Below are positions 281 through 4,261 of a stretch of 64,000 nt of DNA, one piece after another; position 1 is the first letter of the stretch; each line of letters begins with the position of its first letter. Under the pieces are notes generated by a model. It was not told the origin of the DNA. It made no database searches and worked only from the letters and a program-made list of their open reading frames with translations. The DNA comes from Candidatus Aenigmatarchaeota archaeon (GTDB lineage Archaea; Aenigmatarchaeota; Aenigmatarchaeia; CG10238-14; SpSt-28). Both the position numbers and the translations under genes were made by a program. The stretch is taken from assembly GCA_039000725.1 (NCBI GenBank), contig JAWBNO010000001.1:397152-461151 (forward strand), in the 5' to 3' direction.

Positions 281-715
281 CTACTCGAAAATTATTTCGT
301 TTTTATCCAACTTCTTTGACACTGATGGAGATGTACAATTTGTATATATTAAAACGAATAGAATATTAGAATTTGATGAAACATTAAAATAGCCAACAGT
401 ACCTTGATTTAAGCTAGGTATTACATTTTGCACATCTTGACTAGTACCATTTTCATAGACTATTTGAAAATTTACTTTCAACGGTATATTGCCAGTATTA
501 ACAATATATCCATATATATATCCGTCTTTGTACTTAACATCTCCATATGTGCTTATTCCTCCATAAGAACAAAGTAATTGTATTTCCGATTGTTGTTGAA
601 TGTTTTGACTTGATGTTCTAGTAAATCCAGTACCCCATGTGATTATAATTGCTGCTATAGCGATAGTAAATCCTATTAAAAGAATCTCTGCCACAAACGG
701 ACTTATACCTTTCAT
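281..715 (-). CDS. Archaeal type IV pilin-like protein
   Basis: Class III signal peptide MKG|ISPFVAEILLIGFTIAIAAII followed by a beta-rich domain with a Cys pair. Confidence 0.88.
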   Translation of the reverse strand: MKGISPFVAEILLIGFTIAIAAIIITWGTGFTRTSSQNIQQQSEIQLLCSYGGISTYGDVKYKDGYIYGYIVNTGNIPLKVNFQIVYENGTSQDVQNVIPSLNQGTVGYFNVSSNSNILFVLIYTNCTSPSVSKKLDKNEIIFE

Positions 716-1137
716 AACTTAACCTCAAGTGTCACACCAGGACAATCTGTGTAAAATGTGTATTTCAAAAATCCAGGTTCAATATTATCTAAAATAAAAC
801 TAGTAGAAGTTCCTGGATTTGATAAAGCTTCTACAGATCTTGTTATATAGTTCGTTGGATTAGGATAATAGAAGGTAACATTTAGAATCTTTAGTTTAAC
901 TGGACCAAGGTTATAAATACTTATAAAGAAAGTTTTACTCGTTTCATTATAGTACGAAAAATCAACTTTTAAACTACCAGAAGCCATTGAACATCTCCTA
1001 AATTGCTCCGTTTCTTCTTCACTTGGTAAACCGCCTCTAACAAAACTTGAACCCCAAAAAGCTAATATTCCAGCTAGTGTCATTGTTATGGCTATTAATA
1101 ATACAGTTGCAACCAACGGACTAATACCTTTTTTCAT
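712..1137 (-). CDS. Archaeal type IV pilin-like protein
   Basis: Class III signal peptide MKKG|ISPLVATVLLIAITMTLAGIL; 4-nt overlap with the next pilin gene. Confidence 0.9.
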   Translation of the reverse strand: MKKGISPLVATVLLIAITMTLAGILAFWGSSFVRGGLPSEEETEQFRRCSMASGSLKVDFSYYNETSKTFFISIYNLGPVKLKILNVTFYYPNPTNYITRSVEALSNPGTSTSFILDNIEPGFLKYTFYTDCPGVTLEVKL

Positions 1138-1945: not shown

Positions 1946-2308
1946 ATGAGATTAAAAGATAGATACTATCTAATTAGGCAATTGACTAATTTAATTGAAG
2001 AAATGAATAAAGATTTAGATTTTGTTATAGTCGAAGGGAAGAAAGATAAAAAAGTTCTAAACATTTTAGGATTTAAGAAAAAGATATTACTACTAAGTTC
2101 AAGATTGATACTAAAAGGAAAGTTTACTATTTTGACAGATTTTGATAAAGAGGGCAAAAGATTAGAAAAGATTTTGTTAGAAAAATATGGCGATAAGAAT
2201 TTTGTGAGAATATATAGAAAAAAGTTTTACGAGTTATTAGAAGAATATAATATCAAAGAAATTGGAGATTTGGAGAAATCTATAAAAGAAGTTTCTAATC
2301 TATTTTGA
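1946..2308 (+). CDS. Small stand-alone TOPRIM domain protein (RNase M5/primase-like)
   Basis: VIVEGKKD and LTDFDKEG TOPRIM motifs; start moved to ATG 1946 because the longer ORF overlaps tRNA-Lys. Confidence 0.8.
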   Translation: MRLKDRYYLIRQLTNLIEEMNKDLDFVIVEGKKDKKVLNILGFKKKILLLSSRLILKGKFTILTDFDKEGKRLEKILLEKYGDKNFVRIYRKKFYELLEEYNIKEIGDLEKSIKEVSNLF

Positions 2309-3911
2309 ATCTAGTTATAGCTCCTATACCACCCATACTTTTAAATTGTTTACCTTCTTCTGTGTCTTCAGAAACGATATTAATTTTGGCGCCAAGGCTT
2401 TCAGCTTTTTCTATAATTTCGTCGCTAATTTCACTTTCGTACTCTTTTTTCATCTCTTCCCCACAAATTTCACATAAAACTTTTTCATCTCTTTTCACAT
2501 ATTTTTCACTTTTGTGTCCATTTATACAAACAAAACCAGCCTTCAAATAATCAAAATCTTCTGATATAATAAGTTCATCAATAGCATTATATTCTAGCGC
2601 CTTTAACACTTTGTTTAAGCCAATAATGGCATTTTCTCCTCTCTTTAAAGCTAAAAACAGTTTATTTAAAATCGATTTTTCTTTAATTATTTCTGCTTGT
2701 TGTAATACATCTTCACTTCTTTTTACTAACTCTTCTAAGCCATATTCATCTGTATAGCCAACATCTTTTATTCCAAGAATTTTATTTTTTATTTGATAAT
2801 TCAAATAGTCCTCTTCTTTTAATCTTTCTTTAATCGGGCCAGGCCCACCAATTAAAACACCCAGAACATTTTCTTCAAGAAATATAGAAGATGCTACTTC
2901 TCCTACTTTAGTTAAAAACTCATTTATAGCGTCTTCTCTCAGTCTATCATATCTTCCTTGAGAATTATGTACTAATAGAAAATTGGCAAGATAATTTCCA
3001 TATGGCTCAACTTCTAGGTCATAAAAGAATACAGAAGCCTCTATTTCACTATCACTTATATTTTTAATTTTCTTTTCTATTAATTTTTCCTTCTCTAAAA
3101 CTAATACAGTATCTCCTTTGGCTAGATCTTCTACTCTTTTTTCTTTAATTTCACCATTTTCTTTAACAAATATAATATGATCGTAACTTGCAATTATGCT
3201 ATCTTTTTCGAAGAAAATTTTTTTAGCTTTATCAACGTGTCTTTTGAATACTTCTTTAACTTTCCCAATTTTAATAGAATTTTCTATAAAGTCGAAGCAA
3301 AGAACCTCGTCACCCTTTTTAATTTTGTTTATTGGAATTTTTTGGTAAGAAGAATTTATTATTTCTGTCGATCTATGTAAACACATACCACCTTTAACAG
3401 TTTTGCTTGGAACTGTTGACTCCAATCTCTTCCTAACAATAATTTTTTTACCTTTTAAAACTCCTATAGTAGCTTCTTTTGCATCCAAAACTATTAATCC
3501 ATAAACATCTTTTTCTTTAATCATATCTCTTAAAGGATCTAAGACAAAAACTTGATCACACCAATATATTTTTGTTTCAAGTTTTTCTGGAGGTTCTATA
3601 GACCAAAGTTTTATATCTTCTTTTCCTTCTACAGGAGATACATTTCCAGCAAATACAACTAATCCATTGGGCGGGGTTTGTTTAAATAATCTCAAATGTT
3701 GAATTATCTTTTCTAAAGCAGCTACAACATTCTTTCTAGTATTTTTACTCTTTATGTTCTCTGCAGTAGATCTTTCTTCAATAAGTTGATTTATTACTTC
3801 TATTAAATTATATCCCGCAGGAATATAAACAGAAACCAATTCAGTATGTCTTCCTTTAATTTTTTCTAGTTCTTTAATAAGTTTTTTAAGTTTAGTAGAG
3901 TTTTCGCTAAA
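2295..3911 (-). CDS. prf1: Peptide chain release factor aRF1 with mini-intein; 5' end lacks a canonical in-frame start
   Basis: KGRHTELVSVYIP, NIKS, YWCDQVF, GGPG and GGIGAITRF motifs; frame is open up to 3911 (TTT) with a TAA directly upstream. Confidence 0.93.
   Translation of the reverse strand, partial: FSENSTKLKKLIKELEKIKGRHTELVSVYIPAGYNLIEVINQLIEERSTAENIKSKNTRKNVVAALEKIIQHLRLFKQTPPNGLVVFAGNVSPVEGKEDIKLWSIEPPEKLETKIYWCDQVFVLDPLRDMIKEKDVYGLIVLDAKEATIGVLKGKKIIVRKRLESTVPSKTVKGGMCLHRSTEIINSSYQKIPINKIKKGDEVLCFDFIENSIKIGKVKEVFKRHVDKAKKIFFEKDSIIASYDHIIFVKENGEIKEKRVEDLAKGDTVLVLEKEKLIEKKIKNISDSEIEASVFFYDLEVEPYGNYLANFLLVHNSQGRYDRLREDAINEFLTKVGEVASSIFLEENVLGVLIGGPGPIKERLKEEDYLNYQIKNKILGIKDVGYTDEYGLEELVKRSEDVLQQAEIIKEKSILNKLFLALKRGENAIIGLNKVLKALEYNAIDELIISEDFDYLKAGFVCINGHKSEKYVKRDEKVLCEICGEEMKKEYESEISDEIIEKAESLGAKINIVSEDTEEGKQFKSMGGIGAITRFKID
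2964..3383 (-). mobile_element. Mini-intein (140 aa, no homing endonuclease) in aRF1
   Basis: Starts CLHRSTEI, block B-like ASYDHIIF, block F FYDLEV, ends LLVHN followed by Ser. Confidence 0.92.
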
Positions 3912-3931
3912 TTATATTCACCCTAAAATAT

Positions 3932-4261
3932 CTATTCTCTTATTATTTCAACAAAAGAAGGAGCAAGAATTAAATAACCGTCCTGAGTTCCAACAATATC
4001 TATTTTGTTTTGTTTACAATTTCTTTTTAGTTTTTCCAATAAAGTTTGCATATAGCCAAAATCCTTTTTTTGTAATTCTTGGGTTTTAACAATAACTATC
4101 ATTTGTCTAGCCAACCTAATTATTTTATCAACATCTTCACTTTTGTTTAATTTTTCTATTTTTATTTTGAGCTTTTCCTCTTCTTTTATTTCCTCTTCTG
4201 GTACTATTTCTATCTCTCCTTCACTTTCTTTTTTAGAAGGGAAAAAATCACTAAACGCCAT
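3932..4261 (-). CDS. sepF: Cell division protein SepF (archaeal type)
   Basis: Amphipathic N-terminus, acidic linker, core ending DIVGTQDGYLILAPSFVEI. Confidence 0.72.
   Translation of the reverse strand: MAFSDFFPSKKESEGEIEIVPEEEIKEEEKLKIKIEKLNKSEDVDKIIRLARQMIVIVKTQELQKKDFGYMQTLLEKLKRNCKQNKIDIVGTQDGYLILAPSFVEIIRE

Follow-up and report, generated by a model that had tools for sequence, protein, structure and literature searches.

The aRF1 Gene and Its Catalytic Loop

The window, that is, the whole 64,000-nucleotide stretch analysed here (positions 397,152 to 461,151 of contig JAWBNO010000001.1, assembly GCA_039000725.1, Candidatus Aenigmatarchaeota archaeon), carries the gene for the archaeal class-1 release factor aRF1, interrupted in its catalytic loop by a mini-intein. 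The gene is a single long open frame on the minus strand, running from an ATT at 3912–3910 to the stop at 2297–2295. Pfam profiles matched its translation in consecutive order, each above its cut-off (eRF1_1, 60.0 bits; eRF1_2, 114.5 bits; eRF1_3, 72.0 bits), with the eRF1_2 domain split by an Intein_splicing match. The best match among PDB sequences was the Halobacterium aRF1 (4af1; HMMER E-value 2.2e-69). Both stop-codon recognition motifs are kept, NIKS as TAENIKSK and YxCxxxF as IYWCDQVF.

The precursor translation reads ...VPSKTVKGGM/CLHRSTE...FLLVHN/SQGRYDRLRE..., with slashes at the intein boundaries, and the loop predicted after splicing is GGM-SQGRYDRLR. To our knowledge, Gln occupies the third loop position in every described class-1 release factor, GGQ being regarded as universal. 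In the window's gene, the GGQ tripeptide by which the catalytic site of the aRF1/eRF1 family is recognised is instead GGM. The HMMER alignment to 4af1 sets the KGGM of the query opposite KGGQ and QGRYDRLR opposite AQRFARLR; by this alignment, as well as by our alignment of aRF1 sequences (A1), Met stands in the Gln column and the length of the loop is unchanged. Counting from this third residue, the Ser that follows is +1, the next Gln +2 and the Tyr +5.

The predicted spliced loop, GGMSQ, also matches the GGxSQ motif of aVLRF-1 and acVLRF-1 (Burroughs & Aravind 2019, PMC6514570). The Pfam acVLRF1 profile scored 26.1 bits against a cut-off of 27.1 and covered only residues 317–398, after the loop, in a protein that has the eRF1_1 decoding domain.

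A Single Gene under Constraint

The source genome comprises 704,799 bases in 14 contigs and is an estimated 89.9% complete. Profile searches of it (PF03463, PF03464, PF03465 and PF18859) found no second eRF1-family gene; besides aRF1, the eRF1_3 search returned two weak fragments below threshold. Similarly, the bacterial release factor domain (PF00472) had no match in the genome, and the three eRF1 Pfam domains gave no Pelota/Dom34 homologue in this 90%-complete assembly. Weak Pelota-like second matches, in frames of ~340–350 amino acids, occur in several relatives of families f5, f1 (g4) and f7.

The Met codon is real. The ATG is present in all seven other genomes of the same genus that have aRF1, and DNA contigs from four other public hot-spring runs showed no difference at 3384–3386 and no insertions or deletions in 2250–3950. 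An earlier note on this DNA, made from the letters alone, had read the locus correctly in every detail: the GGM-SQ loop after intein removal, with Met in place of Gln and a Gln two residues on, the canonical decoding domain with NIKS and YxCxxxF, and a GGxSQ loop typical of VLRF1-type proteins, the last in agreement with PMC6514570. The two doubts that it had raised, namely that a canonical GGQ aRF1 elsewhere in the genome would make this gene a paralogue, and that the ATG might lack the backing of reads or relatives, were both dispelled.

Furthermore, the gene is under constraint. The ratio of nonsynonymous to synonymous substitution rates (dN/dS), measured against the closest relative that differs, was 0.040 for the N-extein, 0.087 for the C-extein and 0.083 for the intein. 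In alignment A1, the two glycines, the Ser after the third residue and the Arg residues of the downstream helix are invariant, and the length of the loop is fixed. Long open frames of the genome end in each of the three stop codons (TAA 249, TGA 86 and TAG 80, in a crude six-frame count). A structural paper reports that any mutation of the two glycines abolishes release; as these glycines are required, and as they, the Ser and the Arg residues are invariant, we consider the factor to be probably active.

Could the protein merely read stop codons, catalytically dead like Pelota/Dom34, and leave hydrolysis of the peptidyl-tRNA to a different enzyme? In Dom34 and other inactive relatives, the catalytic Gln has characteristically been lost (PMC6514570), and the genome is incomplete. 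However, neither another eRF1-family gene nor a bacterial release factor domain was found in it, the extein dN/dS values are low (0.04–0.09), and the loop is invariant in its glycines, Ser and Arg residues and fixed in length, whereas the inactive families are described in the same paper as poorly conserved and free in loop length. We therefore regard a dead factor as very improbable.

The Non-Gln Loop Across Aenigmatarchaeota

Of 40 relatives in the window's order, 38 carry an aRF1 gene; the loop was read at 30 loci and was GGQ in none. GGM precedes an intein in the window's genus and in several other genera, and the intein-free genes of the order read GGMSQ, GGWSQ, GGFSQ, GGYSQ or GGASQ. A Met imposed by the intein was considered as a candidate explanation and is ruled out by the intein-free relatives that read GGMSQ.

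We then extended the survey to 371 genomes of the phylum in 40 families of the Genome Taxonomy Database (GTDB). At a threshold of E ≤ 1e-20, aRF1 was matched in 344 of them, and in 97 of the 98 of high quality, mostly by one match per genome, or by two where an intein divides the gene. The loop was read in 119 genomes, picked to cover 38 of the 40 families; it was not captured by the search pattern in one further genome (G163, family f19), which lies outside the 119. The canonical Gln is absent in 79 of the 119 (GGM, GGW, rarely F, Y or A), and the remaining 40 read GGQS. Non-Gln loops occur in every genome read from the window's order (f1–f7), in families f18, f27, f34–f37 and f39, and in most of f38. 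A scan of GTDB contigs gave GGQ in records of Thermococcus, Methanomicrobia, Nanohaloarchaea and 'Nanobdellati'; the matching contigs were from Candidatus Aenigmatarchaeota.

Pooling yielded 170 distinct aRF1 sequences, of which 62 keep GGQ and 108 lack the Gln. The third residue of the 108 is Trp in 56, Met in 49, and Ala, Phe and Tyr in one each; Trp prevails in most of the non-Gln families and Met in the window's order. The sequences indicate that this position is still constrained, now to a bulky hydrophobic residue. No intein is present in 93 of the 108.

It might be objected that the loop was first noticed in just one gene, itself carrying an intein, of a metagenome-assembled genome. It could then be an artefact or a special case, due to misassembly, to a paralogue alongside a normal GGQ aRF1, to a constraint set by the intein on the residue, or to recoding of the codon as Gln. 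However, the same codon recurs in the seven congeneric genomes and in the contigs of the four other runs, the great majority of non-Gln sequences are intein-free, and a second copy was not found in the genome. As for recoding, five different residues with unrelated codons occupy the position, so that no single codon reassignment could restore Gln. The probability that we give to an explanation of this kind is accordingly minute, and it is almost certain that the sole aRF1 of this clade truly lacks the canonical Gln.

The loss of Gln is accompanied by changes further along the loop. Gln stands at +2 in 101 of 108 non-Gln sequences versus 3 of 60 GGQ sequences, and Tyr stands at +5 in 84 of 93 versus 15 of 60. 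Could the +2 Gln, placed as in aVLRF-1 and acVLRF-1, have replaced the canonical Gln as the catalytic residue, leaving the old position as a mere spacer? Its near constancy speaks for this, as does GGQSQ, with Gln at both sites, which occurs at L081, L118, L122 and L217 in two GGQ families (f8 and f13) and is a possible evolutionary intermediate toward GGWSQ. On the other hand, the +2 Gln is missing in 7 of the 108 (six GGWSA, as GGWSAN or GGWSAS, and one GGMSS), although theirs is the only aRF1 found at those loci, and a shifted catalytic Gln therefore cannot be obligatory. The loop is as long as in the GGQ forms, whereas that of VLRF-1 is longer (PMC6514570), and the old position is Trp or Met in 105 of 108, unlike a spacer. 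For these reasons, we rank the shifted Gln second and consider it rather unlikely, although it is a serious rival and far less improbable than a dead factor.

Co-Loss of the Methyltransferase Mtq2

The Haloferax enzyme Mtq2 methylates aRF1 at the Gln of GGQ, and Mtq2 orthologues are stated to occur in all archaea (PMC6144793). We searched the same 371 genomes with the NCBIfam profile TIGR00537 (HemK2/MTQ2; cut-off 87 bits), which scored above the cut-off in four archaeal control genomes. It did so in 127 of the 371. Among the 119 genomes whose loop was read, Mtq2 was above the cut-off in 36 of the 40 with GGQ versus 2 of the 79 without the Gln; the four GGQ genomes lacking a match are 79–87% complete. 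In the window's own genome, no Mtq2 was found above the cut-off, the best TIGR00537 match being 33.4 bits. The matches there, all far under the cut-off, are Trm5b, two protein-isoaspartate methyltransferases (PIMT), Trm14 and one class-I methyltransferase.

Family f38 contains both states. Its only strong Mtq2 matches are in G291, G292, G297 and G298, and all four read GGQ, while five other genomes of the family read GGW; the quartet was chosen for its Mtq2 match first, and the loops were read afterwards. Mtq2 and the canonical Gln have been lost together in this clade. The earlier note had suggested both a check of the relatives' loops and a search for the methyltransferase, and the outcome of each, Gln absent in 79 of 119 genomes and Mtq2 not found in the source genome, bears on the two options that it had offered. 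Termination without the canonical Gln and its methylation is strongly supported (79 of 119; Mtq2 in 2 of 79 versus 36 of 40). A shifted Gln fares less well, being possible but, with 7 of 108 sequences lacking it, not the whole story; such a Gln would also be unmethylated, Mtq2 being gone.

Descent of the Loop and the Intein

A maximum-likelihood tree of 111 aRF1 sequences contains a branch, with a Shimodaira–Hasegawa-like approximate likelihood ratio (SH-aLRT) support of 83, to one side of which every non-Gln sequence falls. Its placement in this tree makes the window's gene an aRF1 orthologue. Among the non-Gln sequences, GGW extends across the deeper branches and GGM makes up the bulk of the window's order. 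The GGQ pair G297 and G298 falls within GGW sequences where the tree is poorly resolved; G292 is on a very long branch, as is L147. An approximately unbiased (AU) test did not reject monophyly of the 75 non-Gln rows (p = 0.40). A single loss, a loss followed by reversal or replacement, and several losses are all compatible with these results.

The intein has the marks of class 1: it begins with C177 and ends in ...VHN316, S317 stands at +1, and there is no endonuclease domain. The Intein_splicing profile gave 35.0 bits against a cut-off of 35.8 (E-value 1.5e-8). In all 15 distinct GGM sequences that bear an intein (133–448 amino acids), the Cys1, the HN and the +1 Ser are kept. An intein also occupies the identical site, after the third loop residue, in the GGQ genomes G291 and G292, where it follows Gln. 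Since the same site is occupied with either Gln or Met at −1, the intein is by all appearances an ordinary passenger and does not explain the Met.

How the Factor May Work

We lean, with modest confidence, towards the following reading, its mechanism included: aRF1 would be the single, functional, omnipotent release factor of these archaea, with a bulky hydrophobic residue in place of the methylated Gln and with Mtq2 lost. The intein-containing precursor would undergo class-1 protein splicing, joining ...KGGM to SQGRYDRLR.... Hydrolysis of the peptidyl-tRNA would still depend on the two glycines and the main-chain NH of the third position, which would hold loop and water in place within the peptidyl-transferase centre. 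The Trp, Met, Phe or Tyr side chain would assume the packing role ascribed to the (methylated) Gln, the Met side chain perhaps resembling a shortened methyl-Gln. With Trp or Met filling the methyl-Gln pocket, methylation would be unnecessary, and a dispensable methylation fits a lineage with genomes of 0.4–1.5 Mb. The +2 Gln and +5 Tyr, which co-vary with the loss of Gln, would help to hold the water or the rRNA and are probably auxiliary rather than essential.

Several points weigh against this reading. In yeast and E. coli, replacing the Gln of a release factor is reported to be lethal or to do severe harm in vivo. The near-constant +2 Gln suits a shifted catalytic Gln as well as it suits an auxiliary one, and the Ala of the one GGASQ sequence does not fit a bulky plug. 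With the genome 89.9% complete, a second factor could sit in the missing tenth, which is unlikely because ~79 relatives give the same picture. Two non-Gln genomes are just over the Mtq2 cut-off (G267, 90.6 bits; G034, 87.5 bits), in both cases by partial matches within frames of ~380 amino acids. The relatives are not independent, and the GGQ label needs just two changes on the aRF1 tree; the association with Mtq2 therefore amounts to about two evolutionary contrasts, not 119 data points. Finally, peptide release, splicing and the roles of the side chains are what we infer from sequence.

Does the ribosome differ along with the loop? No co-variation of the 23S peptidyl-transferase centre with loop type was seen, in a comparison of three short segments in ~50 genomes that is a weak negative: positions were placed by short motifs and E. 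coli numbering, many segments were not captured, and some rRNAs carry insertions. Unusual 23S variants occur alike in GGQ and non-Gln lineages. Many Aenigmatarchaeota 23S rRNAs (L236–L289) deviate at 2–3 normally invariant bases by the A-site crevice and in a neighbouring conserved loop, and several, including the copy of the window's own genome, are broken by insertions. That genome's own 23S fragments lie on contig C7 (~35.2 kb). Its contig C9 (~11.2–11.6 kb from one end, minus strand) carries a 23S segment with typical bacterial peptidyl-transferase-centre motifs, 71% identical to the 23S of a relative of the same family; C9 is probably a mis-binned bacterial contig.

The Gene Start and Its Neighbourhood

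Sequence conservation of the protein reaches back to codon 2, yet the first ATG, GTG or TTG in the aRF1 frame is the TTG at 3839 (codon 25), and stops at 3912–3914 and 3918–3920 shut the frame upstream. The start instead has the architecture GGTG-N6-ATT-TAG-C, and aRF1 is encoded in the +1 frame. Where relatives start in the ordinary way, the same GGTG precedes an in-frame ATG by six bases. Among 158 distinct aRF1 5' regions, 42 have a Shine-Dalgarno element, ATT and a stop with the open reading frame (ORF) at +1 (TAA 21, TAG 19, TGA 2), 113 have an in-frame ATG, and 3 have neither. The ATT-stop arrangement occurs in 41 of 105 non-Gln versus 1 of 53 GGQ sequences. In the window's own genome, it is found only at aRF1, the one other match having a normal ATG twelve codons downstream. 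The contigs of the four other runs contain no insertions or deletions at the gene start. The features of the locus are collected in Table 1.

Table 1. Features of the aRF1 locus in the window and occurrence of the ATT-stop start
Feature	Position	Strand	Basis and details
aRF1 gene	2295–3912	−	Only eRF1-family gene found in genome; Pfam, PDB match
NIKS stop-codon recognition motif	3747–3758	−	Translation, comparison with relatives
YxCxxxF motif, YWCDQVF	3546–3566	−	Translation, comparison with relatives
Gly-Gly-Met at GGQ site	3384–3392	−	Gly codons 3392–3387, Met ATG 3386–3384; end of N-extein
Class-1 mini-intein, 140 amino acids	2964–3383	−	Cys1 3383–3381, S-x-x-H block B, C-terminal HN
+1 Ser (2961–2963; S of GGQS) and downstream Gln (2958–2960)	2958–2963	−	Alignment
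Rest of C-extein: remainder of M domain (GRYDRLRE...) and C domain with Cys/His-rich insert	2298–2957	−	Pfam, alignment
Shine-Dalgarno-like GGGTG, 6 nt 5' of ATT	3919–3923	−	Same spacing as GGTG to ATG in relatives
Putative initiation/+1 frameshift site: ATT 3912–3910, TAG 3909–3907, aRF1 frame from AGC 3908–3906	3907–3912	−	
Loci with Shine-Dalgarno, ATT and stop	Window 3906–3923; L008–L015, L022, L024, L027–L036, L038–L052, L055, L067, L070, L146 and six named loci	− (window)	

This start looks like an autoregulatory +1 frameshift of the RF2 style. When aRF1 is ample, translation would terminate at the stop after the AUU; when it is scarce, the ribosome would shift to +1 and the factor would be made. 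In bacterial prfB (RF2), the slip site is CTT-T and the Shine-Dalgarno spacing is 3 nt. Unlike in prfB, the stop of aRF1 directly follows the presumed ATT start, and the Shine-Dalgarno spacing of 6 nt equals that of initiation. With the stop right after the ATT, the shift would happen on an initiating ribosome, whose A site would hold the stop immediately after the start on a weak AUU. The early in-frame stop, the T-rich slip site (ATT-T), the Shine-Dalgarno-like element and the ORF at +1 are shared with prfB and with the recoded eRF1-like gene of Mimivirus and Megavirus (PMC3521657). That paper on giant-virus release factors gives such autoregulation as absent from archaeal and eukaryotic homologues, and our literature searches found no report of an archaeal aRF1 frameshift.

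A 109-residue ORF rich in Glu and Lys (3932–4261, minus strand) lies upstream of aRF1 and stops 8 bases short of its Shine-Dalgarno element; given the common strand and this short gap, the two are probably co-transcribed. Elsewhere in the window, two adjacent ORFs of ~140 residues (281–1137, minus strand) begin with MKKGISPxVA followed by a hydrophobic stretch and, by eye, resemble archaeal type IV pilins in their signal peptides. Sequences resembling tRNAs, again by eye, flank them at about 205–280 and 1840–1915.

Known Systems and Implications

The window's aRF1 shares with canonical aRF1/eRF1 proteins (4af1; Aeropyrum 3agk and 3vmf; human eRF1 1dt9) the three domains, NIKS, YxCxxxF, the two glycines, the Ser after the third residue, the Arg-rich helix, a C domain ending in GGIGxxxR[FY] and a single copy. 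It differs from them in its third residue (Met here; Trp, Phe, Tyr or Ala in relatives), in the +2 Gln and +5 Tyr in place of the usual Ala/Ser and Phe, and in the absence of Mtq2. With aVLRF-1 and acVLRF-1, it has in common the GGxSQ loop and the weak acVLRF1 match after it; unlike them, it has a decoding N domain, groups with aRF1 orthologues, has no lengthened loop and is the only eRF1-family protein found in its genome. The Pelota/Dom34 and baeRF-1 families also lack the canonical Gln, but these are described as inactive, with poorly conserved loops and another N domain (PMC6514570), whereas the loop of the window's aRF1 is strictly conserved, its decoding N domain is present, and no other release factor was found. 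In the literature that we searched, with most subscription journals outside its coverage, no paper was found that joins these lineages with a non-Gln loop, with loss of Mtq2 or with an aRF1 intein.

These comparisons confirm an aRF1 orthologue that, across a large clade of Aenigmatarchaeota, breaks the catalytic-motif rule of its family in step with the loss of Mtq2. The fuller proposal, that this branch terminates translation without any catalytic Gln, with Trp or Met standing for N5-methyl-Gln and Mtq2 dispensable, and that many of its aRF1 genes are in addition autoregulated by an AUU-stop +1 frameshift, is more tentative, and we would put it a little below an even chance.

For annotation, checks for the GGQ motif would call these essential genes defective, and gene callers will truncate the 42 genes with the ATT-stop start. 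If the proposal is true, the frameshift would be the first feedback loop of the RF2 type in Archaea, and the clade would be a natural experiment on the purpose of the GGQ Gln and its methylation. With the sole release factor of many viable species lacking the Gln, and the methyltransferase gone as well, nature has in effect already carried out the mutagenesis. The debated role of the Gln side chain, in catalysis or in packing and the exclusion of other nucleophiles, and that of its methylation thereby become directly testable, with the clade supplying ready-made Trp, Met and +2-Gln variants.

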